Shown: positions 1,721 through 54,691, numbered from the stretch's first letter. The stretch: 64,000 nt of DNA from Minisyncoccota bacterium (GCA_022843285.1 JALHNY010000001.1:79128-143127); one strand, 5' to 3'. Notes: a model not told the origin generated them from the sequence alone. Program-made: numbers and translations.

Positions 1721-1750
1721 AAAGCCCGGCACTAGTTGCCGGGCTTTCTG
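1721..1750. terminator. Bidirectional rho-independent terminator (AAAAAAAGCCCGGCActagtTGCCGGGCTTTCT)
   Basis: perfect 9-bp stem, A-run on one side and T-run on other, between convergent genes; stop codon of helicase lies in loop. Confidence 0.6.
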
Positions 1751-3054
1751 CTGTACCCACCGGAGCTGCGCTGGGGTCCGCGCGGCGTGCGTCGGCGCGG
1801 GGGACGGCTGCTCGAGCCGGAGGGTGACGCCCCGGGGCCGCCGGAGGTCCTGCGCGCGCCACGGTTGCCGCGCCCGCCGGGGCCGCGGAACCCGCCACCT
1901 CGTGCCGGGCGGCGCGGCTCGTCGGAGTACGTGCGGGTTGGCGGCTCGATGCTGCCCGCCGCGCGGGGCATGGCCATCTTCATGAGGCGCTCGATCTCCT
2001 CGACGTCGCGCTTCTGGTCCGGCGCGGCGAACGAGATCGCGTGGCCGGATGCCCCCGCCCGCGCGGTGCGCCCGATGCGGTGCACGTAGTCCTCGGCGTC
2101 CATGGGGAGGTCGTAGTTGACGACGAGCTCGATGCCCTGGACGTCGATGCCGCGCGCGGCAATGTCGGTGGCGACCATGACGCGGTACTTGCCGCGCTTG
2201 AAGCCCTCGAGCGCCTCGCGGCGCTGCGCGAGCGAGCGGTTGCCGTGGATCTCGGTCGAGGAGTGGCCCGCCTTGCGGATGGCGAGCGCGAGCTTCTTCG
2301 CGCCGTGCTTGGTGCGCGTGAAGACGAGCGTCGTGCCCTTGTACTCGCCGAGCACCTTCGCGAGGAGTGCTTCCTTGTCCGGGCGGTGCACGAAGTACAC
2401 CTCCTGGGAGACGTTCGTCGCCACGGTCCCGGGCGGCGCGATCTCGACGTGGGTCGGCATGCGCATCTGCGACTGCGCGATGGCGATGATGGGCTTGGGC
2501 ATCGTCGCGGAGAAGAGGAGCGTCTGCTTGCTCGCGGGGATAGCCGCCAGGATGTCCTTGAGCTGCGGCAGGAAGCCCATGTCCAGCATGCGGTCCGCCT
2601 CGTCGAGGACGAGGATGTTGATCCGGTTCAGGTGCAGCCTCTTCTGCTTCATGAGGTCGTTGATGCGGCCCGGCGTGCCGATGATGAAGTGGGGGTTGGC
2701 GCGGAGTCCGGACACCTGGCGGTTCTGGCTCTCGCCGCCGACCACGAGGACGCTCTTGAGCCCGAGCGGCTGGGCGAGCGGGCGGAGCGCCTCCTGCACC
2801 TGCTGGGCCAGCTCGCGCGTGGGCAGCACGACGAGCGCGAGGTTGCCCCGCAGCGCGCCCGCAATCAGCGGGATGCCGAAGGCGAGCGTCTTGCCCGTGC
2901 CCGTCTGGGCGAGGCCGATGACGTCCTGACCCTGCATGGCGAGGGGAATGGACTTCTCCTGGATGGGGGTGGGCGTGGTGAACTTCAGCTTGTCGAGCAC
3001 GCCGAGCACCTTCGGCGGGATGCCGAGGCCGTAGAACGAGGGGGAACCTTCCAT
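1732..3054 (-). CDS. DEAD-box ATP-dependent RNA helicase with C-terminal RG/P-rich tail
   Basis: PTPIQ, AQTGTGKT, VLDEADRMLDMGF, SAT, HRIGRTARAG motifs; start chosen at MEGSPSF (ATG 3052-3054) because TACAGT-N5-ATG leaderless box precedes it; ORF extends to 3108. Confidence 0.9.
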   Translation of the reverse strand: MEGSPSFYGLGIPPKVLGVLDKLKFTTPTPIQEKSIPLAMQGQDVIGLAQTGTGKTLAFGIPLIAGALRGNLALVVLPTRELAQQVQEALRPLAQPLGLKSVLVVGGESQNRQVSGLRANPHFIIGTPGRINDLMKQKRLHLNRINILVLDEADRMLDMGFLPQLKDILAAIPASKQTLLFSATMPKPIIAIAQSQMRMPTHVEIAPPGTVATNVSQEVYFVHRPDKEALLAKVLGEYKGTTLVFTRTKHGAKKLALAIRKAGHSSTEIHGNRSLAQRREALEGFKRGKYRVMVATDIAARGIDVQGIELVVNYDLPMDAEDYVHRIGRTARAGASGHAISFAAPDQKRDVEEIERLMKMAMPRAAGSIEPPTRTYSDEPRRPARGGGFRGPGGRGNRGARRTSGGPGASPSGSSSRPPRRRTPRGPQRSSGGYSRKPGN

Positions 3055-3144
3055 GGGCGCACTGTACCACGGACGGAGCCCGCGTGCGTGGCGGCAGCTC
3101 CTTGTCACTACGCCCCGCTGTCAGTATTCTTTTCCCCGACCTGA

Positions 3145-3239: not shown

Positions 3240-4493
3240 ATGACATCACACCCAAAGACGTTCCTCGGCATCATCATCGCCCTGACGGTGCTCGCCGGCG
3301 TCTTCGTGTACCCCTGGTCTCCGCTCGCGCAGTACCGGCCGTGGCGCCTCGGCCTCGACCTGGTCGGCGGGTCGCACCTGACGTACCAGGTTGACCTCTC
3401 GAGCGTCGCCGAGGCGGACCGCCCGTCCGTCCTCTCGGGCCTGCGCGACGTCATCGAGCGGCGCGTGAACCTCTTCGGCGTCAGCGAGCCGCAGGTGTAC
3501 GTCGCATCGAGCGGTGACACCAGCAACCTCGTCGTCGAGCTCGCGGGCATCCGCGACGTGGGGGAGGCCATCAAGCAGATCGGCGAGACCCCGCTCCTCG
3601 ACTTCCGCGAGGTTGAGGTCACCGGCAGCTCGACGGAGGACGTGCGGTTCATCCCGACCCCCCTCACCGGGCGCTTCGTCACGGGCGCGCAGGTGGTGTT
3701 CGACCCGAACACGCGCGCGCCGCAGGTCGCCCTCTCCTTCAACAGCGAGGGCGCGAAGATTTTCGCCGACCTGACCGAGCGCAACATCGGCAACCCGATC
3801 GCCATCTTCCTGGACAACAACATGATCTCGAGCCCGGTGGTGAACGACAAGATCACCGACGGCAACGCGGTCATCACGGGCGTCTCGCTCGAGGAGGGCA
3901 AGCAGCTCTCGGAGCGCTTCAACGCCGGCGCGCTGCCCGCGCCCATCGAGCTCGCGAGCCAGCGCACCGTGGACCCGTCCCTCGGCACGAACTCGCTGAA
4001 GACCGCCGCCGTCGCCGGCATGGTCGGCACGCTCGCGGTCATGCTCTTCATGGTCGCGTACTACCGCGTCCGCGGCCTGTACGCGGCGCTCGCGCTCGTC
4101 ATCTACGTCATCCTGACGCTCGCGCTCTTCAAGCTCATTCCGATCACCATGACGCTCGCGGGCCTCGCCGGCTTCATCCTGACCATCGGCATGGCCGTGG
4201 ACGCCAACATCCTCATCTTCGAGCGCATCAGGGAGGAGGAGCGGGACGGCAAGTCGCGGCACGCGGCCATCGTGGAGGGCTTCCAGCGCGCGTGGCCGAG
4301 CATCCGTGACTCCAACGTGAGCTCCATCATCACGGCGGTCATCCTGTACTACTTCACGAGCGGCTTCGTGCGCGGCTTCGCCCTGACGCTCCTCTTCGGC
4401 GTCCTCGTGTCCATGTTCTCCGCGATCACCACGACGCGCCTCTTCCTCCTCGCCTTCGCACCCAAGTCGCGCCCCGCGCACCACGCACGCTAA
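3240..4493 (+). CDS. secD: Protein translocase subunit SecD
   Basis: N-terminal TM, LDLVGGSHLTYQVD motif, C-terminal 6-TM SecD/SecF domain; stop overlaps secF start (TAATG). Confidence 0.9.
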   Translation: MTSHPKTFLGIIIALTVLAGVFVYPWSPLAQYRPWRLGLDLVGGSHLTYQVDLSSVAEADRPSVLSGLRDVIERRVNLFGVSEPQVYVASSGDTSNLVVELAGIRDVGEAIKQIGETPLLDFREVEVTGSSTEDVRFIPTPLTGRFVTGAQVVFDPNTRAPQVALSFNSEGAKIFADLTERNIGNPIAIFLDNNMISSPVVNDKITDGNAVITGVSLEEGKQLSERFNAGALPAPIELASQRTVDPSLGTNSLKTAAVAGMVGTLAVMLFMVAYYRVRGLYAALALVIYVILTLALFKLIPITMTLAGLAGFILTIGMAVDANILIFERIREEERDGKSRHAAIVEGFQRAWPSIRDSNVSSIITAVILYYFTSGFVRGFALTLLFGVLVSMFSAITTTRLFLLAFAPKSRPAHHAR

Positions 4494-5383
4494 TGTTCAA
4501 CATCGCAAAGCTCCGCAACCTGTACCTCGGCATCGCGGCCGTGCTCCTCATCGCCGCCATCTCGCTGATCGGCAAGTACGGCTTCGAGCTCGGCATCGAC
4601 TTCACCGGTGGTGCGCTCTGGGAGGTCTCCGTCCCGTCCGCGACCCCCGAGCAGCTCGGGTCGGCGATCAGCGCGTCGACGGACACCACGGCGCACGTCA
4701 GCACGGACGCGACGAGCGGCCACTACCTCGTCCGCCTCGGCGACGCGTCGCCGGAGCTGTACCAGAACGTGCGCACCGTCGTGGGCGAGCAGTTCGGCGA
4801 GTACTCGGAGCACAGCTTCCAGTCCATCGGCCCGTCCGTGTCGGGCAAGCTGCGCACGGGCGCGCTCGCCGCGATCATCACGGTCATCACCCTGATCTCG
4901 CTCTACATCGTCTTCGCGTTCCGCGGCGCGACGGGCACCCTCGGCAGCTGGGCGTACGGCGTGTCGACGCTCGTCACGCTCTTTTACGACGTAGCCCTCC
5001 CGTCCGCGGTCATCGCCGTGCTCGGCCACTACGGGCAGGTCGAGCTCGACACGAACTTCGTCGTGGCGCTCCTGGTCATCATGGGCTTCTCGGTGCACGA
5101 CACCATCGTGGTGTTCGACCGCGTCCGCGAGAACCTGCGCACGACGCGGGGGACACTCGGCGAGATCGTGAACGCGTCCGTGCGCCAGACCCTCGCCCGC
5201 TCGCTCAACACCTCGTTCACCCTGGTCCTGGTGCTCATCGCCCTCCTGGTCCTGGGGCCGCCCACCCTCTGGTACTTCATCCTGATCCTCCTGATCGGCA
5301 CCGTCGGGGGAGCGTACTCGTCCATTTTCGTGGGCGCCCCCATCCTCCTGCTTTTCGGCCGAAAATCCGGGAAAAAGGGGTGA
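4493..5383 (+). CDS. secF: Protein translocase subunit SecF
   Basis: GIDFTGGALWEV motif and C-terminal SecDF TM bundle. Confidence 0.9.
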   Translation: MFNIAKLRNLYLGIAAVLLIAAISLIGKYGFELGIDFTGGALWEVSVPSATPEQLGSAISASTDTTAHVSTDATSGHYLVRLGDASPELYQNVRTVVGEQFGEYSEHSFQSIGPSVSGKLRTGALAAIITVITLISLYIVFAFRGATGTLGSWAYGVSTLVTLFYDVALPSAVIAVLGHYGQVELDTNFVVALLVIMGFSVHDTIVVFDRVRENLRTTRGTLGEIVNASVRQTLARSLNTSFTLVLVLIALLVLGPPTLWYFILILLIGTVGGAYSSIFVGAPILLLFGRKSGKKG

Positions 5384-5391: not shown

Positions 5392-5420
5392 TTGACGTAT
5401 CAGCCAAACTAAGTCATTAT
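5392..5420 (+). promoter_or_regulatory. sigma70-like promoter TTGACG-N17-CATTAT, ~15 nt before ATG 5436
   Basis: cTTGACGtatcagccaaactaagtCATTATtatcccacaaaaccgATG. Confidence 0.35.
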
Positions 5421-5435: not shown

Positions 5436-6467
5436 ATGTCCATCAACAAACTCATCGAGAACGCGTGGTCCCACCTCCAGCCCCGCCAGCAGGACATCCT
5501 CGCTGGCCGCTTTGGCGTCGGCGAGTACGACGAGCAGCAGACCCTCGCGGCTCTCGGCGACCGGTACGGCATCACGCGCGAGCGCGTCCGGCAGATTGAG
5601 TCCGCCGCGCTCGCATCGCTGCGCGAGGGCCTCTCCGAGTACCCCGAGGCGAAGGCCCTCGTGGAGAAGGTGCGCAAGGTGGTGAAGGAGCACGGGGGAG
5701 TGGCGTCCGTCGACCAGGTCATCGCGGGCACCCGCGCCGACGCGAAGGACATCACGCCGAACTCCCTGCAGCTCATCATCCGCGCGATGAACAGCATCCA
5801 CTACCACGCGGGTGACGACCGCTTCGTCGCCGCGTACGCGACCGACGCCGCGACCTTCAAGCAGGCCTCCGAGACCGTGTCGGCGTGGATCAAGCTCCTC
5901 GAGCAGAAGAAGGGCTCGGTCATCTCCGGTGACGCGTACCGCAAGCTGCTCTCGTCCTTCAGCAAGGACCGGGGCGTGCCGCTGCGCCACCTCGAGCACT
6001 TCGCGTCCCTCTCGAAGCAGATCGTCACGAACTCGTACGGCGAGACCGGCCTGTCCCACTGGACCGAGGTGAACCCGCGCACGGTCCGCGACCAGATCTA
6101 CCTCATCCTGCGCAAGCACGACGCGCCGCTCCACTTCGAGGAGATCGCGACCGCCATCAACAAGAGCGGCATCTCGGCGCGCCCGGCGCTCTCTGCGACC
6201 GTGCACAACGAGCTCATCAAGGACGAGCGCTTCGTGCTCGTCGGCCGCGGCAAGTACGCGCTCGCCGAAGCTGGGTACGAGCCCGGCACCGCCCGCGACG
6301 TGGTGCACCGCATCCTGTCCCAGAAGGGCCCGCTCACCCCGCCCGAGGTCATCCAGGCGGTGCAGAAGGAGCGCCTCTTCAAGCCGAACACCATTCTCGT
6401 GAACCTGCAGAACCGCCAGCACTTTACGCGCAACCCGGACGGCACGTACCAGGTTCGCGAAGCCTAG
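5436..6467 (+). CDS. HTH protein with sigma-70 region-4-like N-terminus and two C-terminal winged-helix-like repeats; first gene of 5-gene operon
   Basis: QTLAALGDRYGITRERVRQIESAAL resembles sigma70 region 4 HTH; repeated ...GKYALAE / ...GTYQV modules; 9-nt gap to next gene. Confidence 0.5.
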   Translation: MSINKLIENAWSHLQPRQQDILAGRFGVGEYDEQQTLAALGDRYGITRERVRQIESAALASLREGLSEYPEAKALVEKVRKVVKEHGGVASVDQVIAGTRADAKDITPNSLQLIIRAMNSIHYHAGDDRFVAAYATDAATFKQASETVSAWIKLLEQKKGSVISGDAYRKLLSSFSKDRGVPLRHLEHFASLSKQIVTNSYGETGLSHWTEVNPRTVRDQIYLILRKHDAPLHFEEIATAINKSGISARPALSATVHNELIKDERFVLVGRGKYALAEAGYEPGTARDVVHRILSQKGPLTPPEVIQAVQKERLFKPNTILVNLQNRQHFTRNPDGTYQVREA

Positions 6468-6476
6468 GCAGCTCGC

Positions 6477-7682
6477 ATGGACGTCATTCTCAGCCTCGTC
6501 GGTGGAGCGCTGCTTTTCGTGCTGTCCCTCTGGTGGATCGCGCTGCCCATCGCGCTCATCCCGCTGATTCTCTCGGCGCTCACGTTCTGGCGCCAGCAGC
6601 TGTACAAGGCCAAGTCCATGGAGTCCGTCCTCCTCGAGCTCCGCATCCCGCCGGACCTCCTGCGCAGCCCGCGGGCCATGGAGCAGGTCCTCATCGCCAT
6701 GCACGGCCTGAGGAACGCGCCGAAGACCTGGCGCCAGTACCACATCGACGGGCAGGTGACGCGCTGGTTCTCGTTCGAGATCGTGAGCGAGGGCGGCATG
6801 CTCCGCTTCTACGTGCGCACGCCCGCCGCGCTGCGCAACCTCGTCGAGGCCTCGCTCTTCTCCTACTACCCGGAGGTCGAGATCATCACCGTCCCGGACT
6901 ACGCCGCGGACATTCCCGACACCATCTACGAGATGGAGGCCAACGGCCTCGACGTGTGGGGCACCGAGATGACCGCCGCGAAGGACCCGGTCATCCCGTT
7001 CAAGACGTACGCCCACTTCGCCTCCGGCGAGAAGGACGGCATCGACCCGCTGTCTTCGCTGGTGGAGATCCTCGGTAAGATCAGGGCTGGCGAGTTCGCC
7101 GGCGTGCAGATCATCGCCGCGCCCGCGGACAGGAAGTGGAACTCCGGCGGGGGAGACCAGATCGCGAAGCTCAAGGAGTCGGGCATGCTCACCCCCGGGG
7201 AGTCTGCCTCCGTGAAGGAGATCGAGGAGAACGTGAGCAAGCCCGCCTTCAACACGCTCGTGCGCGTGCTCTACGTGGCGCCGAAGGAGGGCTTCAGCAG
7301 CGCGCTCGTCGCGAGCGGCGTCGGCAACGCGTACAACCAGCTCAGCGGCCCCAAGTACAACGCCTTCGCCCCGACGCAGGGGGTCGGGGGCAAGGGGGAG
7401 GCGCTCCGCTTCTCGAAGGCGCGCATGCTGTGGGCGTACCGCCGCCGCGCCATCCCCGAGTCCGAGTACATCGGCAAGGTGCTCACGAGCAACGGCAAGC
7501 TGCGCAACTTCTCCGAGCGCTGGGCGCCGATCAACGTCGAGGCGCTCGCCACGATGTTCCACCCGCTGACCTCGTCGGTGCTCACGGCCCCGCACATCGA
7601 GCGCCTCAGCTCGCGCCGCGTGTCGGCTCCCGCCGGGCTCCCGATCTACGGCGACGACGAAGCCATCAAGCGATTCCTGTAG
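6477..7682 (+). CDS. Membrane protein (N-terminal 2-TM hairpin + ~350 aa soluble domain), unknown function
   Basis: ILSLVGGALLFVLSLWWIALPIALIPLILSALTFW hydrophobic hairpin; tightly coupled (3-nt gaps) to downstream genes. Confidence 0.5.
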   Translation: MDVILSLVGGALLFVLSLWWIALPIALIPLILSALTFWRQQLYKAKSMESVLLELRIPPDLLRSPRAMEQVLIAMHGLRNAPKTWRQYHIDGQVTRWFSFEIVSEGGMLRFYVRTPAALRNLVEASLFSYYPEVEIITVPDYAADIPDTIYEMEANGLDVWGTEMTAAKDPVIPFKTYAHFASGEKDGIDPLSSLVEILGKIRAGEFAGVQIIAAPADRKWNSGGGDQIAKLKESGMLTPGESASVKEIEENVSKPAFNTLVRVLYVAPKEGFSSALVASGVGNAYNQLSGPKYNAFAPTQGVGGKGEALRFSKARMLWAYRRRAIPESEYIGKVLTSNGKLRNFSERWAPINVEALATMFHPLTSSVLTAPHIERLSSRRVSAPAGLPIYGDDEAIKRFL

Positions 7683-7685
7683 CCC

Positions 7686-8174
7686 ATGGAGACCATCTCA
7701 ACCGCCTACACCGTCTTGCAGATCTTCGTCATCGCGATTGACGCGGTGCTCGTCGCGCTCTTCGCGTGGGTGCTCTCCAAGGCGCACGCCGCCAAGCCGG
7801 ACATCATGGGTGCCCCCACCTCCACCACCGCGCAGACCGCGGCGACGAACCGGGCGAAGGCCGTGCAGGAGGCCTGGGCTGGCATCGAGGCCCAGGCTGC
7901 CCGCGGCGCCGAGGGGCAGCGCCTCGCCGTGATTGACGCGGACCGCCTCGCAGACCGCCTGCTCAAGGATGCCGGCTACGCGGGCGAGGGCGCGCTCGAC
8001 CGCATGCGTCAGCTCCCGGCCGACCGTCTCGCGACGGCCTCCGACCTGATGGCCGCGCACCGCTTCCGCAACCGCCTGGTGCACGAGGTCGGCTTCACCC
8101 CGTCAGACCGCGACCTGGAGAGCGCGCTCGCGCAGTACCGCGCGTTCCTCTCCGAGGTCGGGTACCTCCCGTAG
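7686..8174 (+). CDS. Small single-TM protein with alpha-helical soluble domain, unknown function
   Basis: N-terminal YTVLQIFVIAIDAVLVALFAWVL TM; operonic. Confidence 0.45.
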   Translation: METISTAYTVLQIFVIAIDAVLVALFAWVLSKAHAAKPDIMGAPTSTTAQTAATNRAKAVQEAWAGIEAQAARGAEGQRLAVIDADRLADRLLKDAGYAGEGALDRMRQLPADRLATASDLMAAHRFRNRLVHEVGFTPSDRDLESALAQYRAFLSEVGYLP

Positions 8175-8177
8175 CAG

Positions 8178-9284
8178 ATGGCAGAGAAGGGACAGAATCG
8201 CATCCAGCTCCACGCGGTGAAGTACTCGCCGCCGCCGGCCGATTTGCCGGTGTACGGCGCGAACTCCGGCGCGCAGATGACCGTGCTCGGGCGCAGCACG
8301 TACGTCGCCGCGCTCGACGAGCAGCGCTACGTGTACGGCATCCTCGAGGAGGATCGCGCCGCCGGCGTGCACGTGCTCGGCCGCGCCGGCATGGGCAAGA
8401 CGAAGCTGCTAGAGTCCATGGCCCGCCAGGACATCGCGGCCCGGCGCACCTTCGCCGTGATCGACGCGACGGGGAACCTGGCCACGAGCATCCTGCCGCT
8501 CCTCGACGGGGAGGCGAAGTCGCAGACGGCGCTCATCGGCAACGGCTGGGACGCGAGCGTCTCGCTCCTGCCGCGCTCCGGTGACGAGCTCCGCTTCGCG
8601 GACACGCTCGCCACCGCGACCGCCGAGTACGCGGGCACGAGCTTCGACCCGCTGCTCCGCCGCGAGCTCGCGGCCGTCCTGTCCTCGCAGAAGTTCGCTA
8701 CCGTTGCCGACCTCCTCCCCGCGCTTCCCGTGAAGCCCGTGATGGAGCCGGTGCGCGCGCTCCTCGAGGACCTGCTCGACCACCCGACCGCAAAGGCCGC
8801 GCTCTCCGGCACCCGCCCGATTGCCGGCAACGTCATCGCCGTGCTCTCGCCAGCGGACCTCGGCTTCTCGCGCGCCCGCGCCATCGCGCACCTGGTCAGC
8901 GACGCGGTGCTCTGGGCGCGCGAGCACGACGAGCTGCCCACGCCCTTCTACGTGGACGGCCTCGAGCTCCTGGGCGGCAGGGGAGGCGTGGCGCTCCTGC
9001 GCGACATGGCAGCCGCGAAGGTGCTGCCCGTCCTCGCGCACCGCGCCTACGCCGACGTGTCCGATGCGCTCCTGTCCGCCATGTCCGCAACGATTGGCAC
9101 CGAGGTCGCGTTCCGGCTCTCCGGCGAGGACGGCTCGCGCGCGCGCAACGAGTTCGCGCAGACCTTTGACGTGCGCGACTTCCTCGTGCTCGCCACCCGG
9201 CAGTGCTACGTGAGGCTCCAGATCAGGGGAGAGATTCGCGAGCCGTTCTCGGCGGAGACGCTGCCGCTCGTGGCCCCGAGATAG
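8178..9284 (+). CDS. P-loop ATPase, TraG/VirD4/TrwB (type IV coupling protein)-like, no TM segment, degenerate Walker B
   Basis: Walker A GRAGMGKTKLL; ...AVIDATGNL; C-terminal PFYVDGLELLGG...AHRAY resembles TraG-D_C but Walker B Glu replaced by Gly (VDGLE). Confidence 0.55.
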   Translation: MAEKGQNRIQLHAVKYSPPPADLPVYGANSGAQMTVLGRSTYVAALDEQRYVYGILEEDRAAGVHVLGRAGMGKTKLLESMARQDIAARRTFAVIDATGNLATSILPLLDGEAKSQTALIGNGWDASVSLLPRSGDELRFADTLATATAEYAGTSFDPLLRRELAAVLSSQKFATVADLLPALPVKPVMEPVRALLEDLLDHPTAKAALSGTRPIAGNVIAVLSPADLGFSRARAIAHLVSDAVLWAREHDELPTPFYVDGLELLGGRGGVALLRDMAAAKVLPVLAHRAYADVSDALLSAMSATIGTEVAFRLSGEDGSRARNEFAQTFDVRDFLVLATRQCYVRLQIRGEIREPFSAETLPLVAPR

Positions 9285-9285
9285 C

Positions 9286-9996
9286 CTAGGCTCGCCCCAG
9301 GTAGTGCTCGAGGGTGTAGACCCAGTCCTCCTCTGGGCGGTCTGAGTTCCGCTTCTGCTCCAGGAGCCACTCGAGGTAGCCCGGATCGGTGCGCGCCACG
9401 TCCTCGACCTTCGCGCCGAAGTACTTCCCGAACTTGATCGTGCGAATGAGCGAGGGGAGGAGCGAAATCTTCTGCATCTCGGCGATTGCCGCGTCCCGCT
9501 CCATGCCCGCAGCCTCCATCTTGGAGAGCAGCCGCTCGAAGAGCGCCGCGAGCACCCTCACGTCGGTGGCCGCGTCGTGCGCGCCACCGTCCACCTCGAT
9601 GCCCAGGTAGTACCTCAGGTACTGCAGCCCGTACTCGGGAATCACCGCGTCGGCGTCCAGGTGGCGCGCCACCTTGAGCGTGCAGATGCGGCGGGAGACC
9701 TCGATGCCCTCCGCCTCGAGCATGGCGGCATCAAAGGCGCAGTTGTGGCAGACCAGGATGCCGTCCTTCAGGAGGCCGGAAATCTTCTCGTGCGTGCCAC
9801 TGCCCGCGAACGCCGGCAGCCCCTCGAGCATCTTCTCGGTGATGTGCGTGATGCTCATGGCCTTCACGGACATGGGTACCGGCGGCTTGAAGCGGGCCAC
9901 CTCGAGCTCGCCGTCCACCTGGTACGCGACCTCGCAGAGGCGATCCTTCGCGGGGTCGTTGCCGGTGGTCTCGGTGTCCAGGAATACGAGCTTCAT
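9286..9996 (-). CDS. exoX: Exodeoxyribonuclease X-like DnaQ-family 3'-5' exonuclease
   Basis: FLDTETTG exo I motif, HNCAFD, DAATD...; C-terminal FGKYFGAKVEDVARTDPGYLEWLL...LEHYL matches E. coli ExoX C-terminus; leaderless TATACT-N7-ATG upstream. ORF-track extension to 11526 is spurious. Confidence 0.8.
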   Translation of the reverse strand: MKLVFLDTETTGNDPAKDRLCEVAYQVDGELEVARFKPPVPMSVKAMSITHITEKMLEGLPAFAGSGTHEKISGLLKDGILVCHNCAFDAAMLEAEGIEVSRRICTLKVARHLDADAVIPEYGLQYLRYYLGIEVDGGAHDAATDVRVLAALFERLLSKMEAAGMERDAAIAEMQKISLLPSLIRTIKFGKYFGAKVEDVARTDPGYLEWLLEQKRNSDRPEEDWVYTLEHYLGRA

Positions 9997-10056
9997 GGGT
10001 GGCAGTATAGCTGACTCTTTAGCAAGAACTGCACCGCGCCCTGGTATACTTGCTGC
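9997..10056. promoter_or_regulatory. Divergent intergenic region with TATACT boxes on both strands (minus 10004-10009, plus 10045-10050) feeding leaderless starts
   Basis: cagcTATACTgccacccATG (minus) and ggTATACTtgctgcGTG (plus). Confidence 0.45.
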
Positions 10057-11766
10057 GTGGAACAGCCCGAGGACATCACGTACATCGGCAGGACGGACTT
10101 CCGCGGCGCGGAGCGCCTCTTCGGCATCAAGCGCCGGGACCGCCGCCAGCACATGTACATCATCGGAAAGTCCGGCACGGGTAAGTCGACGCTGATCGGC
10201 AACCTCATGGTGCAGGACATCGCCAACGGCGAGGGCATCGCCGTCGTCGACCCGCACGGCGAGCTCGCGGAGCACACCATGGCGCGCATCCCACTCTCCA
10301 GGCGCCAGGACGTCGTGTACTTCAACCCGTCGGACCTGGAGTACTCCATCGGCTTTAACGTCCTGGAGCTCTCCGACCCGACCGACGCGAAGGAGAAGAA
10401 CCTCGTGGCCTCCGGCCTCATGAGCATCTTCGAGAAGCTCTGGGCGGGCACGTGGTCCTCGCGCATGGAGCACATCATGAACAACACCATCCTGGCGCTC
10501 CTCGACACGCCGGGCTCGACGCTCCTCGGCATCCCGCGCATGTTCGCGGACAACGCGTACCGGCAGCAGGTCCTCAACAACGTCACGGACCCGTCCGTGC
10601 TCTCGTTCTGGCTCAACGAGTACGAGACGTGGGACGACCGGTACCGCAAGGAGGCCATCGCGCCGATCCAGAACAAGGTCGGGCGCTTCCTCTCCACGCC
10701 GCTCATCCGCAACATCGTGGGGCAGAGCAAGAGCACGATCGACATCTACAAGATCATGAACGAGGGGAAGATCTTCATCATCAACCTCTCGAAGGGCATG
10801 ATCGGCGAGGACAACTCGGCGCTGCTCGGCGCGATGCTCATCACGAAGATTCAGCTCTCCGCCATGCGCCGCGTGGAGATTCGCGACGAGGACCAGCGCG
10901 TGGACTTCTACCTGTACGTCGACGAGTTCCAGAACTTCGCCACGGACTCCTTCGCCACTATTCTCTCGGAGGCCCGCAAGTACCGCCTGAACCTCGTGGT
11001 CGCGCACCAGTACGTCGGCCAGCTCGTCACGGACACGTCCACGCGCGTGCGCGACGCCATCTTCGGCAACGTGGGCACCATGGTGGCGTTCCGCGTGGGC
11101 GCCGATGACGCCGAGTTCCTCGAGCGCGAGTTCAAGCCGGAGTTCACGACCCACGACCTGATCAACCTCCCGAACCGCCGCATCTTCCTGAAGCTCATGG
11201 TGGACGGCGTCTCCTCGCGGCCGTTCTCCGCGTCCACGCTCCCGCCCTTCAAGGCAACCGAGGCGAGCATTCCCGAGGAGGAGATCGTCTCGGCGAGCCG
11301 CAAGCTGTACGCGCGGCCGCGCTACGTCATCGAGGCCGAAATCAACCAGAGCAGCGGCCTGGGCGGCACCGAGCAGCTCCGCCAGAAGCAGATCAGCGGC
11401 GCCATGCGCCGCGAGGGCCCGCGCGTGCGGACGCCGCAGCGCGGGGGAGACACCGCCGACCTCGCCGCGCTCGGCTTCGACATGACCTCGCACCGCTCTC
11501 CCGCGCCGCGCGCACCGCGCCCGCACGACGGCAACTACCGCCCCTCGAGCTTCGCCCCGCAGCGGAAGCCGGTGGCTCCACCCCCGCAGAGGCCGCCGGC
11601 CAAGCCGGCGGCGCCCGTCCGCGGCACCGGCGGCGTCTCGCTGTCCGCGCTCTCCGGGGAGGGCGGGTCGCGCCCGTCCATCGCGCCGAGCAAGCCCGTC
11701 GACGTCGAGGCAATCAAGAAGTCCATCGAGCAGGCACTGAAGAAGAATGAAGGCGACAAAGACTAG
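10057..11766 (+). CDS. TraG/VirD4/TrwB-family (type IV coupling protein-like) ATPase with intact Walker A/B and disordered Pro/Arg-rich C-terminal tail
   Basis: YIIGKSGTGKSTLIGNLMVQDI, AVVDPHGEL, FYLYVDEFQNFATDSF...RKYRLNLVVAHQYVGQL (TraG-D_C-like); GTG start; no N-terminal TM. Confidence 0.65.
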   Translation: MEQPEDITYIGRTDFRGAERLFGIKRRDRRQHMYIIGKSGTGKSTLIGNLMVQDIANGEGIAVVDPHGELAEHTMARIPLSRRQDVVYFNPSDLEYSIGFNVLELSDPTDAKEKNLVASGLMSIFEKLWAGTWSSRMEHIMNNTILALLDTPGSTLLGIPRMFADNAYRQQVLNNVTDPSVLSFWLNEYETWDDRYRKEAIAPIQNKVGRFLSTPLIRNIVGQSKSTIDIYKIMNEGKIFIINLSKGMIGEDNSALLGAMLITKIQLSAMRRVEIRDEDQRVDFYLYVDEFQNFATDSFATILSEARKYRLNLVVAHQYVGQLVTDTSTRVRDAIFGNVGTMVAFRVGADDAEFLEREFKPEFTTHDLINLPNRRIFLKLMVDGVSSRPFSASTLPPFKATEASIPEEEIVSASRKLYARPRYVIEAEINQSSGLGGTEQLRQKQISGAMRREGPRVRTPQRGGDTADLAALGFDMTSHRSPAPRAPRPHDGNYRPSSFAPQRKPVAPPPQRPPAKPAAPVRGTGGVSLSALSGEGGSRPSIAPSKPVDVEAIKKSIEQALKKNEGDKD

Positions 11767-12424
11767 GCCTAGGGTGCGCTTCTCGCTCCTCTCCGCCGCC
11801 CCCGAGGTGGCGGAGAGCTACGCGCGCTCGTCCATTCTCGGCCGCGCCCAGCGAGCCGGCCTCATCCAGGTGGACCTGGTGGCCCTCAGGGACTTCGCCG
11901 GTGACGCGCACCGCACCATCGACGACAAGCCCTTCGGCGGCGGGCCGGGCATGGTCCTGAAGGTGGAGCCGATCGTGCGAGCCGTGAGGAGCGTGCGCCC
12001 GCGCCCGGGCGCCACGAGCCGCGTCGTTCTGTTTTCGACGCGCGGCAAGCCGTTCACGCAGAAGGAGGCGAAGCGGCTCTCGAAGTACAGGCACCTCGTG
12101 CTCATCGCCGGGCGGTACGAGGGCGTGGACGAGCGCGTGGCTGAGCACGTCGCGGACGAGGAGATCTCCCTGGGTGACTTCGTGCTCACCGGGGGAGAGG
12201 TCCCGGCGCTCGCGGTGATAGACGCGGTGAGCCGCCTCGTACCCGGCGTGCTCGGCAAGTCCGAGTCCCTCGAGGAGGTGAACGGCAGCTTCCCCACGTA
12301 CACGAGGCCCGCCTCGTTCTCCCCGGGCAGGGGCAAGGAGACGTGGGACGTTCCCGAGGTGCTCGCGTCCGGCGACCACGGGGCGGTGGCAGCGTGGCGT
12401 CGCGCCTCGAGGGGGACGCGGTAG
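11747..12424 (+). CDS. trmD: tRNA (guanine37-N1)-methyltransferase TrmD
   Basis: DDKPFGGGPGMVLKVEP, GRYEGVDERV, SLGDFVLTGGE motifs; start may be slightly downstream (overlaps upstream gene by 20 nt). Confidence 0.85.
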   Translation: MKATKTRPRVRFSLLSAAPEVAESYARSSILGRAQRAGLIQVDLVALRDFAGDAHRTIDDKPFGGGPGMVLKVEPIVRAVRSVRPRPGATSRVVLFSTRGKPFTQKEAKRLSKYRHLVLIAGRYEGVDERVAEHVADEEISLGDFVLTGGEVPALAVIDAVSRLVPGVLGKSESLEEVNGSFPTYTRPASFSPGRGKETWDVPEVLASGDHGAVAAWRRASRGTR

Positions 12425-13506
12425 GGCTCGCGGCGGCCGGCGTCGTTTCGGGAACGGCGCTCGCCGCGCTGGGCGCCCCCGCTCTCCTCGCCGCGCTCTC
12501 CGCGTCCGCCCCGCTCGCTCTCCTGAGGCGCCGCGCCTGGGTGCTCAGCGCCGCCCTGCTGCTGGCGTTCGCGTCTTTCGCCACCCGGGTCGGCGGTGGC
12601 CGCTCCGCGCCCGATCCGCTCGCGACTTTGCGGGCGGGCCTGCTGGCCCCGCTGCTGCGGAGCGTGCCCGGCGATTCGGGCGCGCTCGCCGCGGGCCTCA
12701 CGCTCGGCGATGACGGGTACTTCAGCGCGGACGCCCGGCGCAGCTTCCGCGACAGCGCCACGACCCACCTCGTCGCCCTCTCGGGGTTCAACGTGGCGCT
12801 CATGGTCGGCGCGCTCCGGAGGGTTCTCGCGAGGCACCTGAGCCCGCGCCGCTTCGCGGTGCTCGCGTGCGCCGCCCTCCTGGCCTTCCTCTGCGTCACG
12901 GGCTTCCAGCCCTCCCTGCTGCGAGCCTCGCTCGCCGGCGGCGCGCTCCTGCTCGCCGGGGCGTGGGGGAGGCGCGCGGGGCACGCGCGCGTGGTGCTCC
13001 TGGTGGCCGCGGCGATGCTCGTCGCGGCGCCGTCCTTCGCCCTTCACCTCGGCTTCACGCTCTCCTTTGCCGCAGCGTGGGCGCTCGTTGCTACGGTGGG
13101 TGACGTGGAGAGGCTCCTCATCAGCGGCCGGGCGACGGCAAGGGACGTGATCGTCTCCGGCGTGATCCCGACGGCCGTCGCGCAGCTCGCCGTGCTGCCG
13201 GTGCTCCTCGCGGCGGTGGGCACGGTCCCGCTCGTGGGGTTCCTGGTGAACCCCGCCCTCGTTCCCGCGGTTCCCGCCCTCACCGCCGCGTCGTGGCTGC
13301 AGCTGCTCGCCTCGCACGTGTCGCCCGACGTCGCGACACTCGGCGGCGCGGTGACCGGCGCCGCGCTGAGCTTCGTCACGGGCGCCGCGGGCGCCGCCGC
13401 CAGCACCCCGCTCGCCGTTACGCTGCCCGTCCCGCCGCTCCTGGTCGTCGCCGGGTACGCCGCGTGGTTCCTCCTCGCCGTGCGCCGCAAGCCGCGCCTG
13501 TGGTGA
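12343..13506 (+). CDS. comEC: ComEC/Rec2 competence-channel (polytopic membrane) domain protein; start uncertain (ATG 12343 overlaps trmD; GTG 12541 alternative)
   Basis: HLVALSGFNVALMVGALRRVL signature of ComEC competence domain, many TM helices; ends at TGA overlapping GTG of next ORF (GTGGTGA). Confidence 0.6.
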   Translation: MGRSRGARVRRPRGGGSVASRLEGDAVGLAAAGVVSGTALAALGAPALLAALSASAPLALLRRRAWVLSAALLLAFASFATRVGGGRSAPDPLATLRAGLLAPLLRSVPGDSGALAAGLTLGDDGYFSADARRSFRDSATTHLVALSGFNVALMVGALRRVLARHLSPRRFAVLACAALLAFLCVTGFQPSLLRASLAGGALLLAGAWGRRAGHARVVLLVAAAMLVAAPSFALHLGFTLSFAAAWALVATVGDVERLLISGRATARDVIVSGVIPTAVAQLAVLPVLLAAVGTVPLVGFLVNPALVPAVPALTAASWLQLLASHVSPDVATLGGAVTGAALSFVTGAAGAAASTPLAVTLPVPPLLVVAGYAAWFLLAVRRKPRLW

Positions 13507-14315
13507 GGCACGGCTTCCTGCTCCTCCTCGCACTCACCGGGTGCGCGTGCCTGCTCACGCTGCCGCGGCGCGACTCAGCCCGCGCGCTCTCGCTCATCGA
13601 CGTGGGCCAGGGTGACGCCGCCTACATCCAGTCCGGCGGCGCCGGGCTGCTGGTCGACACGGGCGTCCCCGGGAGCTCCGCAGACCTCTCGGCACCCGGC
13701 CCGGTGAGCGCGCTCCTGGTTACGCACCTGGAGCGCGACCACGCGGGCGACGCGGCGAAGGTCATCGCGCGTGGCAACCTCGCCGCCGTTTTCTGGAACG
13801 GGCGCACCGATGCGCCGCTCCACGGCGATGTTGCGAGGGCAGCCGGTGCGGCTGGCGTGCCGCTCGTCGCGCTCGTGCCCGGTGACGTCCTCAGGGTGGG
13901 GGACGTGCGGCTCGAGGTCCTATCTCCCGGCCCCGGGTACCGGACGAGCGCGGACCACAACGACAGCTCTCTCGTCCTGCGCGCCGACTTTCCCGAGTTC
14001 TCGGCTCTCCTGACGGGGGACGCCCCCGCCGAGGTCGAGCGCCTCCTGCCGCCGGGTCCGGCGGACGTCGACGTCCTGAAGCTCGGCCACCACGGCTCCA
14101 AGACGGCCACCGGTGACCACCTCCTGGATCTCGCGACGCCCGCACTGGCCCTCGTGTCCGTCGGGGCGGGCAACCGCTACGGGCACCCCGCGCCCGAGGT
14201 GCTCGCGCGGCTCGAGGGGCGCGGCATCCCGCTCCTGCGCACGGACGAGCAGGGGACCATCACGGTGTTCTGGCGCGACGGCGAGCTGCGCGCCTCGACG
14301 TCGAGCGCGCGCTAG
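13503..14315 (+). CDS. comEC: ComEC C-terminal metallo-beta-lactamase (MBL) nuclease domain encoded as separate ORF (or frameshifted)
   Basis: TM helix then LIDVGQGDAAYI and LLVTHLERDHAGDA, KLGHHGSK MBL motifs; different frame from upstream ComEC ORF. Confidence 0.6.
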   Translation: MRHGFLLLLALTGCACLLTLPRRDSARALSLIDVGQGDAAYIQSGGAGLLVDTGVPGSSADLSAPGPVSALLVTHLERDHAGDAAKVIARGNLAAVFWNGRTDAPLHGDVARAAGAAGVPLVALVPGDVLRVGDVRLEVLSPGPGYRTSADHNDSSLVLRADFPEFSALLTGDAPAEVERLLPPGPADVDVLKLGHHGSKTATGDHLLDLATPALALVSVGAGNRYGHPAPEVLARLEGRGIPLLRTDEQGTITVFWRDGELRASTSSAR

Positions 14316-14325
14316 GGGTGCACGG

Positions 14326-14337
14326 TATACTGGGCTC
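14326..14337 (+). promoter_or_regulatory. TATACT box 6 nt upstream of GTG start of ftsW (leaderless)
   Basis: cggTATACTgggctcGTG. Confidence 0.45.
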
Positions 14338-15450
14338 GTGCCCAACCTCAAGACCATCTTCCGGCGCGCGCACTCCGCGGACCAGATGCTCGCGGCCATC
14401 ATGGCGCTCCTCGTCGCCGGGGGACTGGTCATCCTCGCCTCCGCGTCCAGCAACCTCGGCGAGGTGAACTACGGTGACTCGTACTACTACCTCAAGCACC
14501 AGATCCTGTACGGCCTCACGCTGGGCATCGCCGGCTTCCTGATCGCGAGCCGCGTGCACTACACGTGGCTCAAGAAGGTAGCCTTCCCGCTGCTCATCGT
14601 CTCCGCGCTCTGCCTGCTGCTCGTCCCGTTCGTGGGCGTCACCGTGCAGGGGGCGACCCGCTGGCTGGCCATCGGCCCCATCACGTTCCAGCCGTCCGAG
14701 CTGCTCAAGATCACCTACATCCTGTACCTGGCCGCGTGGCTCTCCGGCGCGTCCCGCCGCCGCACGCAGGACGTGCGGACGGGGTTCCTGCCGTTCCTCA
14801 TCGTCTCGGGGGGCATCGCGCTCCTGCTCATGCTGCAGCCGGCGACCTCGACGCTGATCATCCTGCTCGGGTCCGGCCTCATCCTGTACACGTTCGGCGG
14901 CGCGCCGTTCAAGTACTTCCTCATCTCGGTGCTGCTCGGCGTCGTCGCAATCGGGGCGCTCATCTCCATTACCGGGTACCAGCTGGACCGCATCAAGGGC
15001 TTCCTGAACCCCTCCGAGACGTCCCAGGCAGAGGGCTTCCACACCACGCAGGCGCTGATCGCGATCGGCTCGGGGGGCATCACGGGCGTCGGGTACGGCG
15101 AGTCCACGACGAAGGTCTCGTTCCTCCCCGAGCCCACCGATGACTCCATCTTCGCCGTCGCCGCCGAGGAGTTCGGGTTCATAGGCTCGAGCATCATCGT
15201 CGCGCTCTTCGGCTCGCTCGTGGTCCGCCTCTACATGCTCGCGTGGCGCACCAAGGACCAGTTCGGGCAGCTCCTGCTCGTCGGGTTCGGCACGGTCATC
15301 GGCGCGCAGGCGTTCGTCAACATGGCGGTCATCTCGGGCATGGGGCCGCTCACGGGCGTCCCGCTGCCGTTCATCAGCTACGGCGGCACGGCTCTCGCCG
15401 TCTTCATGACGATGATCGGCATCTCGAGCAACGTCTCGGCCAACAACTGA
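14338..15450 (+). CDS. ftsW: SEDS-family peptidoglycan glycosyltransferase FtsW/RodA
   Basis: multi-TM, conserved ...GATRWLAIGPITFQPSELLKI... and C-terminal PLPFISYGGT; placed before murG. Confidence 0.8.
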   Translation: MPNLKTIFRRAHSADQMLAAIMALLVAGGLVILASASSNLGEVNYGDSYYYLKHQILYGLTLGIAGFLIASRVHYTWLKKVAFPLLIVSALCLLLVPFVGVTVQGATRWLAIGPITFQPSELLKITYILYLAAWLSGASRRRTQDVRTGFLPFLIVSGGIALLLMLQPATSTLIILLGSGLILYTFGGAPFKYFLISVLLGVVAIGALISITGYQLDRIKGFLNPSETSQAEGFHTTQALIAIGSGGITGVGYGESTTKVSFLPEPTDDSIFAVAAEEFGFIGSSIIVALFGSLVVRLYMLAWRTKDQFGQLLLVGFGTVIGAQAFVNMAVISGMGPLTGVPLPFISYGGTALAVFMTMIGISSNVSANN

Positions 15451-15480
15451 TCCCGCGCCTGGTATACTCACGGCACTGCC

Positions 15481-19875: not shown

Positions 19876-20043
19876 ATGGAACCCGAAATCGTGGGTACCT
19901 TTCTCTCGGATCTGCGCGAGCAGCTGTCCGGCCTCCTGGGCCTGGCTGAGGATTTCATCGCCCTGATTGACCGTCTGGTGGTGCTCGCAGCTGACGCGAT
20001 CCGGTCGCTCCTGTCTGCACTGGCTGGCATCATCGGAGCGTAA
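19876..20043 (+). CDS. Possible small protein (55 aa), unknown
   Basis: ATG 2 nt after upstream stop; not in ORF track (<60 aa); weak support. Confidence 0.25.
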   Translation: MEPEIVGTFLSDLREQLSGLLGLAEDFIALIDRLVVLAADAIRSLLSALAGIIGA

Positions 20044-20085
20044 GGTTTGGGAAAAGGTGGATAGTGTGTATACTTGGATACGATT

Positions 20086-21276
<1,191 letters not shown>

Positions 21277-21328
21277 GCAAAGAGCTACCCGTTCAGGGTA
21301 GCTCTCGTTTCACGACACAAGTCGGTCC

Positions 21329-21568: not shown

Positions 21569-21599
21569 AGCGCCGTCTTTGCGAATGATGTCGGGAATC

Positions 21600-49848: not shown

Positions 49849-49862
49849 GCCCTGAGTGTACA

Positions 49863-53615: not shown

Positions 53616-53619
53616 GCCG

Positions 53620-54690: not shown

Positions 54691-54691
54691 C

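Follow-up and report, generated by a model that had tools for sequence, protein, structure and literature searches.

Type IV coupling proteins (T4CPs; VirD4, TrwB, TraG and TraD) carry an N-terminal transmembrane (TM) anchor in the same chain as their ATPase, together with substrate-binding tails. VirB4 proteins such as TrwK likewise unite an N-domain and a VirB4-type ATPase in one chain, and mobile elements encode single-chain 'DUF87' coupling proteins, among them an 886-aa protein of the B. subtilis MH-1 plasmid, phage G gp156, phage CP-51 gp91 and phrog_5156. A 2025 survey of 3,035 Patescibacteria genomes counted 5,713 VirD4-like homologs, present in 2,918 of the genomes; 148 of these homologs lay near virB4, and relaxases numbered 109 in total. 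The Patescibacterial VirB4 clade was nested within monoderm MPF-FATA, and T4CP genes frequently lay at a distance from virB4 (PMC12102498). That T4CP homologs are more prevalent (96%) than VirB4 (80%) may simply stem from their presence in two copies per genome where assemblies are incomplete. Orphan T4CP homologs of these ultra-small (CPR) bacteria are thus known from this survey, which covers neither their partner genes nor the split into separate polypeptides that we propose here for a locus in a 64,000-nt stretch of DNA (the window) from a Minisyncoccota bacterium (JALHNY010000001.1:79128-143127).

In the window, four plus-strand ORFs, g1 (5436-6467), g2 (6477-7682), g3 (7686-8174) and g4 (8178-9284), follow one another with gaps of 9, 3 and 3 nt. 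The tight packing noticed in a preliminary description is thereby confirmed, with four genes in place of the five it had counted at 5436-9284. The conserved upstream neighbours of this operon are secD (3240-4493) and secF (4493-5383), both on the plus strand. Downstream, an ExoX gene on the minus strand (9286-9996; RNase_T and ExoX-like_C domains) stands between the operon and a further ATPase gene, g6 (10057-11766, plus strand), whose start is 60 nt away. TrmD overlaps the 3' end of g6, and nearby lies ComEC, split as described earlier into two ORFs in different frames.

The 569-aa product of g6 (hereafter paralog B) is a soluble VirD4/TrwB-type ATPase with Pfam and NCBIfam matches and, as first proposed, an intact one, with the motifs GKSGTGKS and YVDEFQ. 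Like T4CPs, it retains Walker A and B and passes the family cut-offs for TrwB_AAD_bind (39.1 bits, cut-off 20.5), T4SS-DNA_transf (38.3, cut-off 20.1) and TraG-D_C (29, cut-off 22). It also exceeds that of DUF87 (39.8 bits), a family shared across the superfamily and the sole HerA-related match; g6 matched neither FtsK_SpoIIIE nor HerA_C, no NurA-like neighbour is present, and AAA_10 (15.8 bits) stays under its cut-off of 27.5. Assignment to the VirD4/TrwB family, and not to FtsK, is therefore upheld. When a profile of both ATPase paralogs was compared with the PDB, TrwB (1e-5) and DotL (0.007) were the only secretion ATPases matched, and VirB4 was not among the hits. The C-terminal tail of g6 (138 aa, cysteine-free, net charge +10, pI 10.7) is disordered; across homologs, paralog B tails are either a zinc ribbon or strongly basic, and in this variability resemble the substrate-binding tails of T4CPs. 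More than 8000 homologs of g6 were found, and the best 120 of these are 53-84% identical to it, those with a source name all coming from Patescibacteria. Unlike T4CPs, g6 is a vertically inherited core gene, one of two paralogs, and neither g6 nor g4 contains a hydrophobic segment by Kyte-Doolittle analysis, whereas T4CPs have their anchor in the same chain.

We infer that the TM anchor is supplied in trans by g2 (plus strand, 6477-7682), a 401-aa probable member of the DUF8128 family (PF26449) with one or more N-terminal TM segments and a VirB4/TrwK-fold cytoplasmic domain. Its alignments with many PF26449-bearing proteins reach E 1e-106 or better; its own precomputed entry is '-', and a 79%-identical relative is labelled PF26449 (weak). 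The soluble domain of about 350 aa given in the preliminary description does lie C-terminal to a hydrophobic N-terminus. The two TM segments of that description agree with the AF2 model, which has helices at 2-17 and 19-47, and disagree with the Kyte-Doolittle profile, which has one segment at 13-31. In a fold search, DUF8128 matched the structure of VirB4 (TrwK), although a DUF8128 profile showed sequence-level similarity to no chain in the PDB. The fold-search output comes without aligned TrwK residues, and from three indirect points we infer that DUF8128 matched the N-terminal domain of VirB4: DUF8128 lacks a P-loop, the architecture of phage G gp155 fits, and DUF8128 is N-terminal to the ATPase in fusion proteins. 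In contrast to VirB4, the two parts are here separate polypeptides, and the ATPase is of VirD4 type. The g2 anchor is thus more than a TM hairpin, given its fold match to VirB4. Similarity to EccE of the mycobacterial ESX type VII secretion system was much weaker, and other ESX components are absent here.

That the anchor has been separated from the ATPase, as suggested earlier, is backed by Rosetta-stone fusions. Proteins of 825-911 aa encoded by Bacillus plasmids and phages unite DUF8128 and this ATPase in a single chain. The phrog_5156 family spans both (g2 at positions 72-223, g6 at positions 402-806), and phage G gp156, which adjoins the VirB4-like gp155, combines a DUF8128-like region at 29-318 (hhalign probability 97.5%) with a g6-like ATPase. 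In the 886-aa B. subtilis plasmid protein, positions 53-307 are DUF8128-like (probability 98.1%, E 7e-14) and positions 326-730 are g6-like (5e-37). These single-chain proteins are colinear with g2 followed by g6 and are matched at the fold level in BFVD at 1e-15 to 1e-17; they differ in being fused, in residing on mobile elements and in having their hydrophobic segment elsewhere in the chain. Three elements, the B. subtilis plasmid, phage CP-51 and an Embleya plasmid, have a Replic_Relax gene after the fused or long gene; both plasmids also have a VirB4-like gene alongside, and the B. subtilis one has TcpC and TcpE in addition. This relaxase-family neighbourhood implies DNA handling, and the Patescibacterial genes would therefore correspond to a chromosomal coupling protein split at the linker and lacking a relaxase. 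Overall, we consider it fairly probable that the cluster is a domesticated, chromosomally fixed T4CP machine divided into separate polypeptides. In such a machine, DUF8128 would serve as membrane anchor and adaptor, and g6, whose counterpart in Bacillus elements is joined to DUF8128 by a linker of ~18 residues, would be the catalytic motor. ATP hydrolysis by paralog B would power the movement of a polymer to, or through, a channel in the membrane; by homology, the polymer moved is most likely DNA. A point against such a machine is that, in the window, ExoX on the opposite strand comes between g6 and the operon.

The operon's own ATPase gene, g4 (8178-9284, plus strand), encodes a 368-aa degenerate ortholog of a second paralog, A. 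The protein is paralogous to g6 (BLASTP 5e-12 and 2e-9) and, with its motif loss, a predicted pseudo-ATPase. As reported previously, it is a soluble, ATPase-like protein without TM segments and with an altered Walker B (YVDGLE). A Walker A-like GRAGMGKT is retained; DPHG has become DATG and AHQY has become AHRAY, a deletion has shortened the Walker A-Walker B interval by ~56 aa, and there is no C-tail. Against Pfam, g4 reached no family cut-off and gave weak TraD P-loop matches only. The window shares the degenerate form with L004 and L092, the closest two genomes for which context was available, and in the L004 ortholog the Walker A lysine is lost as well. Full-length A paralogs of 435-526 aa occupy this operon position in 60 of 68 related loci, and each such copy examined has both Walker motifs intact. 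The active/inactive ATPase pair put forward in the preliminary description thus holds in so far as one paralog is degenerate, but not as a general design, as degeneration is limited to the window's clade. Nevertheless, g4 is kept as an intact ORF despite the loss of catalytic motifs and of about a quarter of its length, and is probably a non-catalytic subunit or adaptor.

Paralog A and the anchor have a short motif in common. The C-terminal tail of g2, which is conserved and modelled at low confidence, contains …SRRVSAPAGLPIYGDD…, and g4 retains an A-specific N-terminal PPPADLPVYG. The pattern P..LP[IVLM].G occurs in just two places in the window's predicted proteome, the g2 tail and the g4 N-extension; 58 of 62 A N-termini carry it, and 0 of 28 B N-termini do. 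We propose that the DUF8128 tail may tether a paralog B hexamer to the membrane, with the tail motif PAGLPIYG present in cis at the N-terminus of paralog A. According to this model, Paceibacteria would have gained paralog A together with the small TM protein g3.

The ATPases did not turn out to belong to an unrelated family, nor did the genes lack synteny in related genomes. Instead, the neighbourhood is strongly syntenic: the order SecD-SecF-g1-DUF8128-g3-ATPase is kept in most of 81 loci, SecD/SecF lie 5' of DUF8128 in 51 of the 61 related loci with enough flank, and the ATPase next in line is paralog A in the 60 of 68 loci given above and paralog B directly in 2 more. In three distant lineages, with DUF8128 at 30-33% identity, SecD/SecF are again upstream and a single B-like ATPase directly follows DUF8128. 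These ATPases group with paralog B in a neighbour-joining tree, by which B is the ancestral partner type of DUF8128. ExoX is an incidental neighbour: it was found in 0 of 81 related loci, and L092 has another gene in its place.

In two distant contigs, secA is linked as well; this and the secDF linkage could point to protein export. Were the operon with secD/secF (and sometimes secA) functional, the ATPases would serve Sec-associated protein export or membrane biogenesis. We regard this as very unlikely, as nothing in the domain content links the module to Sec components, the DNA-binding g1 stands between secF and DUF8128, and the fused relatives imply DNA handling. The same gene order bears on whether an integrated conjugative element or a prophage left the locus behind, or whether it defends against phages with a HerA/mad8-like ATPase and a HEPN nuclease. 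Weak PADLOC matches to mad8 (2.3e-11 for g6) and HerA, a HEPN-like motif in g3 and relatives in phages and plasmids would fit this. Defence islands and mobile elements, however, are patchily distributed and not core, whereas the secDF-side order is kept in ~80 species, down to 30% identity, and other classes that lack g3 keep DUF8128 and the ATPase. Moreover, no integrase, relaxase or transposase was found near the module, and its composition is that of host genes, with a GC3 of 0.93-0.97 for all operon genes and the same in adjoining housekeeping genes. Such an origin or role is extremely improbable.

For the split T4CP machine that we favour, candidate channels would be a Patescibacterial T4SS encoded elsewhere, or ComEC. 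If the former, the module would be the coupling protein of that T4SS and would recruit substrates to it, while being encoded away from the virB4 cluster, which is typically near oriC. This reading overlaps with the favoured one, the sole difference being the naming of the channel. It gains from the fused homologs being T4CPs inside Gram-positive T4SS clusters, from a VirB4-N-domain-like anchor that could dock on VirB3/VirB6-like partners, and from the MPF-FATA affiliation of Patescibacterial VirB4 and the frequent distance of T4CP genes from virB4 (PMC12102498). However, the same survey found few homologs near virB4 and relaxases almost absent, and the position of the module is fixed with secDF and g1 across classes. 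Consistent with the preliminary description, VirB4, VirB6 and relaxase genes were absent from the scanned window genes (Pfam, about half of 64 predicted); the gene tables of related loci likewise list no relaxase or VirB4- or VirB6-type genes. Unlike T4CPs, the module has no relaxase or T4SS genes nearby and has a separate VirB4-fold protein as partner; and whereas TrsD homologs of Patescibacteria are mostly beside virB4, DUF8128 is beside secDF. In S. epibionticum, the T4CP homolog was reported to be non-essential, whereas the T4SS is essential (PMC12102498). This speaks against an indispensable part in the T4SS, although redundancy between the paralogs could hide it. Taken together, a T4SS coupling role appears possible but rather doubtful.

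With ComEC as the channel, the module would be the DNA-uptake motor first suggested for this locus, pulling DNA through ComEC as a substitute for ComFA and working with type IV pili. The basic or zinc-ribbon tails of paralog B would suit such a motor, the order B-TrmD-ComEC occurs in the window's own clade as well as in some others, and comEC and the T4CP homolog are both dispensable for growth of S. epibionticum. Competence genes are also enriched in Patescibacteria (PMC11665869). However, only 8 of 43 loci (19%) have ComEC downstream, the linkage is absent in distant lineages, and the pilus genes are 38 kb from the module, so that cooperation with ComEC or pili is a guess. We know of no competence system that uses a T4CP. 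Overall, an uptake motor of this kind seems unlikely.

The remaining two proteins of the operon accompany DUF8128 to different extents. The 162-aa g3 (7686-8174, plus strand) is a single-pass membrane protein, its one TM segment, as claimed earlier, falling at 13-31 by Kyte-Doolittle analysis, with a conserved all-helical cytoplasmic domain; its AF2 single-sequence model is poor. It adjoins DUF8128 in 70 of 77 loci and is missing from the distant lineages. Its motif AHRxRNxLVH resembles the HEPN Rx4H motif, and RN(R)LVH is kept in at least 90% of sequences. HEPN_Swt1 matches to the g3 family are sub-threshold: with E values allowed up to 1, 12 of 44 members matched, the best at 0.0013. In two members examined one by one, the match covers the motif helix and reaches 13.9 and 12.8 bits, below the cut-off of 27.5. 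The HEPN-like motif could point to RNA.

The HTH regulator of the preliminary description is recognizable in g1 (5436-6467, plus strand), a 343-aa DNA-binding protein in which an N-terminal sigma-70 region 4 (Sigma70_r4, 55 bits, 4.6e-15) is followed by a HARE-HTH domain (39.6 bits, 7.2e-10) and a further winged-helix-like segment; its PDB matches were limited to region 4 of primary sigma factors. It lies immediately 5' of DUF8128 in 64 of 73 loci, and also in the distant lineages, and is a candidate DNA-side adaptor or regulator. In the secF-g1 gap, a sigma-70-like promoter (TTGACG-17-CATTAT; 5392..5420, plus strand) is present as a consensus match only; scanning 7.2 kb for such promoters gave 2 sites, against 0.3 expected from shuffles.

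The window has a GC content of ∼66%, and the closest relatives of its proteins are found in Patescibacteria (CPR), class Paceibacteria/Parcubacteria. A DEAD-box helicase gene on the minus strand (1732–3108) is followed by secD (3240–4493) and secF (4493–5383), and the gap between secF and the next gene holds a match to a sigma-70-like consensus (5392–5420). Then come g1 (5436–6467), g2 (6477–7682; the DUF8128 membrane anchor), g3 (7686–8174; a protein with one transmembrane (TM) segment) and g4 (8178–9284; the ATPase termed paralog A). An exoX gene on the minus strand (9286–9996) separates g4 from g6 (10057–11766; the ATPase termed paralog B), with trmD (11747–12424), ComEC as two ORFs in different frames (12343–13506 and 13293–14315), ftsW and murG after it. 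Third-position GC is 0.93–0.97 across the genes of the region. The preliminary description had five genes in a packed operon; the packing stands, with intergenic gaps of 9, 3 and 3 nt, but the operon comprises four genes, g1–g4. In g1, Pfam places sigma-70 region 4 at residues 12–64 and a HARE-HTH domain at residues 215–278, and PDB matches are limited to region 4 of primary sigma factors. Elsewhere in the window, GC falls to 0.57–0.62 at positions 1–2000 and 20001–24000, as compared with ∼0.66 for the remainder.

A scan of one genome per species with seven closer DUF8128 sequences as query yielded 80 loci with a DUF8128 gene, and we mapped the window proteins onto these and one metagenome locus (81 loci), counting for synteny only loci with sufficient flanking sequence. 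The g1 gene lies directly upstream of DUF8128 in 64 of 73 loci, with secD and secF further upstream in 51/61, and g3 follows directly downstream in 70/77. Paralog A comes after g3 in 60 of 68 loci, and a B-type ATPase takes the place directly after g3 in two more. An ortholog of g6 was present within 10 kb in 17 of 43 loci, and trmD downstream in 7/43. In about ten loci A neighbours B, with a gap of at most 70 nt. A defence island or ICE remnant was rejected as an explanation, as the gene order is that of a core, vertically inherited locus. In three contigs whose DUF8128 is only 30–33% identical, the order secD–secF–[Sigma70_r4+HARE-HTH]–DUF8128–ATPase is kept, and two of them have secA upstream. 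These contigs lack g3 and have a single ATPase, which in a rough neighbour-joining tree clusters with B, whereas A forms a separate Paceibacterial clade. As the distant contigs have no g3 and one B-grouping ATPase, the predicted ancestral module is g1–DUF8128–B, to which paralog A and g3 would have been added later. The DUF8128 profile recovered 3600 clusters at 50% identity, 1075 of them at E ≤ 1e-30; the best 150 of the 3600 are all stand-alone proteins of 281–549 aa, mostly longer than 400.

Paralog B (g6) scores above the Pfam cut-offs for TrwB_AAD_bind, T4SS-DNA_transf, TraG-D_C and DUF87, and it keeps intact Walker A and Walker B motifs (GKSGTGKS and YVDEFQ, respectively). No TM segment was found in g6. 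A PDB profile search with the g6 family matched TrwB (1e-5) and DotL (0.007) but not VirB4. An FtsK/HerA repair context for the ATPases was rejected, because family evidence for such a context was not found. More than 8000 g6 homologs were returned; among the best 120 (53–84% identity), every one with a named source is from Patescibacteria, and the tails of most contain a zinc ribbon (CxxC-x17-CxxC). The g6 tail itself (138 aa, 11353–11766) is cysteine-free, with a net charge of +10 and a pI of 10.7. Across the related loci, most B tails likewise have the zinc ribbon, and it is missing from those of the window, L004, L051 and L071, which are strongly basic (net charge +9 to +12); the genomes with these ribbon-less tails are also those with a degenerate or absent paralog A.

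The preliminary description took the system for a coupling protein whose membrane part is encoded by a separate gene, and both gene fusions and the deep synteny bear this out. The N-terminus of g2 is hydrophobic, its soluble domain spans ∼350 aa, and homologs of the protein are labelled PF26449 (DUF8128). The AF2 model of g2, built on an 89-sequence alignment, has a pLDDT of 90.4 and a pTM of 0.86, the last ∼40 residues being conserved and of low confidence. When this model was compared with the PDB by Foldseek, the top 12 matches were all chains of TrwK, a VirB4 homologue. Among viral models (BFVD), it matched Bacillus phage G gp156 (2.7e-17), phage Slash (1e-15) and phage JL (4e-15), as well as phage G gp155 (3e-6). 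The last is VirB4-like with a P-loop_TraG/AAA_10 domain at residues 331–547, and therefore the matched fold should be its N-terminal half. These model-based matches suggest that the DUF8128 fold is that of the VirB4 N-domain, which refines the separated membrane part to a domain matching VirB4 by fold. At the sequence level, a profile search against PDB sequences gave only noise, with no similarity of DUF8128 to any PDB chain, and tblastn of g2 against phages gave no matches; the link to phage proteins came through PHROGs, hhalign and the fold search. PHROG 5156 (824 positions) is matched by g2 at 72–223 and by g6 at 402–806. In phage G gp156 (825 aa), residues 29–318 align to the DUF8128 profile (hhalign 97.5%, E 5e-12) and the C-terminal half aligns to g6 (27.5% identity, 2e-38). 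An 886-aa protein of a B. subtilis plasmid resembles DUF8128 at residues 53–307 (98.1% probability, E 7e-14) and g6 residues 10–407 at residues 326–730 (28% identity, 5e-37). As the fusions are colinear with g2 followed by g6, the Patescibacterial gene pair thus corresponds to a single protein divided inside an ∼18-residue linker.

On the B. subtilis plasmid (NZ_CP032854, locus L091), the 886-aa gene is followed by genes for Replic_Relax (PF13814), TcpC, TcpE and a VirB4-like ATPase, and in phage CP-51 (L085) the Replic_Relax protein gp90 comes after gp91. An Embleya plasmid has an 812-aa type IV coupling protein (T4CP) gene between a VirB4-like gene and Replic_Relax; its ATPase is 32% identical to g6, and likeness of its N-terminus to DUF8128 was not shown (hhalign probability 19%). 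This genomic context indicates that the long form serves conjugative-type elements of Gram-positive bacteria as their coupling protein and has a relaxase-family gene as its partner, and mainly because of this pairing we propose DNA as the ancestral substrate. By homology, DNA is also the most probable substrate of the Patescibacterial module. The linkage to secDF and secA would favour protein export instead, which we regard as a minority possibility beside translocation of DNA. Large lytic Bacillus phages also encode the fused DUF8128–T4CP-like gene: it adjoins a VirB4-like gene in phage G (L084, 87999–97111), and a Replic_Relax gene and a partition gene in CP-51, a pairing as on the small Bacillus conjugative-type plasmid.

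Paralog A (g4) is paralogous to g6 (BLASTP 5e-12 and 2e-9), although no Pfam family scored above cut-off for it. Elsewhere, paralog A has 435–526 aa (median ∼484), and the motifs GKSGVGKSK, DPHGD, Y[VI]DEF, AHQY and GNVG are intact in every copy examined in other genomes. We compared the degenerate g4 with the orthologs from L004 and L092, which are the closest two genomes with context and have a DUF8128 that is 72% and 79% identical, respectively, to that of the window. All three have YVDG[LF]E as Walker B, DATG, DGTG or DASG in place of DPHG, and AHRxYAD in place of AHQY; they have also lost ∼56 residues from the stretch between the two Walker motifs, as well as the C-terminal tail. The L004 copy additionally lacks the Walker A lysine (GSGRT). 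In the next relative out, L093 (∼45% identity), A is intact with 484 aa. As the degenerate ORF is intact in three of three genomes and has diverged between the window and L004 at about the rate of g3 and SecF (62% identity for g4, 66% for each of the others), g4 is probably a pseudo-ATPase that is being maintained rather than a pseudogene in decay. The active/inactive ATPase pair of the preliminary description is thus present in the window, where A is degenerate and B intact, but it is clade-specific and not a general design, since the copies of A examined outside the clade are intact. Genomes with intact A, dead A or no A form a natural series for the tolerance of dead subunits by ring ATPases.

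Across the predicted proteins of the window (18,904 aa in total), the pattern P..LP[IVLM].G is matched just twice. One, PAGLPIYG, lies in the low-confidence C-terminal tail of g2 (residues 385–392; 7629–7652), and the other, PPADLPVYG, in the paralog-A-specific N-terminal extension of g4 (residues 19–27; 8232–8258). The motif occurs in 58/62 N-termini of A versus 0/28 of B; the strict pattern is present in 39 of 89 DUF8128 tails, and variants such as GLSIYG explain many of the remainder. The peptide could be an ATPase-docking element, which DUF8128 would supply in trans to B and which A would carry in cis. Paralog A may stem from a duplication in which the 3′ end of the DUF8128 gene was picked up.

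The g3 protein has one TM segment (residues 13–31) and a conserved helical C-domain with a nearly invariant A-H-R-x-R-N-x-L-V-H (residues ∼124–133), a sequence compatible with the Rx4H signature of HEPN RNases. HEPN_Swt1 is the Pfam family matched by the largest number of g3 members (12/44, best E 0.0013, all below cut-off), and in two members examined individually the match covers only the motif helix. A single-sequence AF2 model (pLDDT 52.5) was unusable for fold comparison, the g3 profile gave only marginal matches to the Rpb5 N-domain in the PDB, and a word-indexed search returned only close relatives, none with a Pfam label. A membrane-anchored HEPN protein beside a T4CP-like ATPase would be unusual. 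This HEPN-like protein would fit RNA as the substrate, again a minority possibility next to DNA.

A large part of bacterial diversity belongs to the Patescibacteria, whose ways of acquiring and exchanging macromolecules are largely unknown. The module is most likely a membrane-tethered, ATP-driven translocase of the T4CP type, with B as its motor and, in the clade of the window, A as a non-catalytic subunit. The predicted motor may serve the Patescibacterial type IV secretion system (T4SS), serve ComEC or act alone. A 2025 survey of 3,035 Patescibacteria genomes found VirB4 in 2,417 and 5,713 VirD4-like homologs in 2,918 (PMC12102498). This is about two per genome, which fits the A/B pair. Only 148 of the 5,713 lie near virB4, and only 109 relaxases were found (PMC12102498). 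In S. epibionticum, a T4CP homolog was reported as non-essential and T4SS genes as essential; the authors state that exaptation "cannot be ruled out", and name no partners for the orphan VirD4-like genes (PMC12102498). That T4CP homologs are more prevalent than VirB4 (96% versus 80%) was discounted as a sign of T4SS independence, because, with assemblies required to be only ≥50% complete, having two gene copies would suffice for about that gap. In the papers covered by our literature search, DUF8128 goes unmentioned, and we found no account of the secDF–g1–DUF8128–ATPase module, of the splitting of the coupling protein or of the inactive paralog. Wang et al. 2023 name neither VirD4 nor VirB4 in their main text, and searches on FtsK in Patescibacteria gave nothing informative.

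It is conceivable, if rather unlikely, that DUF8128 and the B-type ATPase, joined in Paceibacteria by A and HEPN-like g3, constitute a nucleic-acid translocase that operates independently of a T4SS and has a housekeeping role across the phylum. Such a translocase might, as one possibility, be the long-sought cytoplasmic motor of ComEC DNA import in organisms unable to make nucleotides, and in the clade of the window it would have become an assembly that obligatorily combines active with dead subunits.

The orphan VirD4-like genes are now tied to a defined conserved module, consisting of a DUF8128 anchor with a VirB4 fold match, a sigma-r4/HARE-HTH protein, secDF linkage, the A/B pair and a HEPN-like membrane protein, and gene fusion ties it to coupling proteins from Bacillus phages and from conjugative plasmids of Gram-positive bacteria. 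A DUF family that has thousands of members thereby gains a likely role, and a vague annotation gives way to hypotheses that can be tested in Saccharibacteria, which are now genetically tractable.

The links that the preliminary description drew to ExoX, ComEC and pili found weak support or none. The ExoX-type DEDDh exonuclease gene lies between A and B in the window genome only; a functional link was rejected, with ExoX in 0/81 loci. L092 has an AHSA1/Polyketide_cyc2-like gene at this position on the same strand, and the gap between A and B appears to be a variable insertion spot. ComEC is found downstream in 8 of 43 loci. In the window, one of its two ORFs encodes a Competence domain and the other a Lactamase_B domain; in L092 there are likewise separate genes (13701–14816, 371 aa, and 14810–15637, 275 aa), and tblastn coordinates suggest different frames in L004, L015, L029, L051 and L021. 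As the split recurs in relatives, it looks conserved and not like a sequencing error. A type IV pilus/T2SS-like cluster lies 38 kb from the module on the minus strand (49402–55954). It comprises a T2SSE ATPase (54692–55954), a T2SSF platform protein (53620–54690), a protein of 574 aa that combines Ig-like and CarboxypepD_reg domains (51891–53615), an ORF with an N-terminal methylation (prepilin-type) motif (51289–51927) and two ORFs without a family match (49863–51296 and 49402–49863). Also on the minus strand, 28798–32034 encodes a 1078-aa UvrD-like helicase/PD-(D/E)XK nuclease fusion that resembles AddA by Pfam scan, and the large ORFs at 46262–48820 and 56636–58705 look UvrA- and UvrB-like, judging by their N-terminal sequences.
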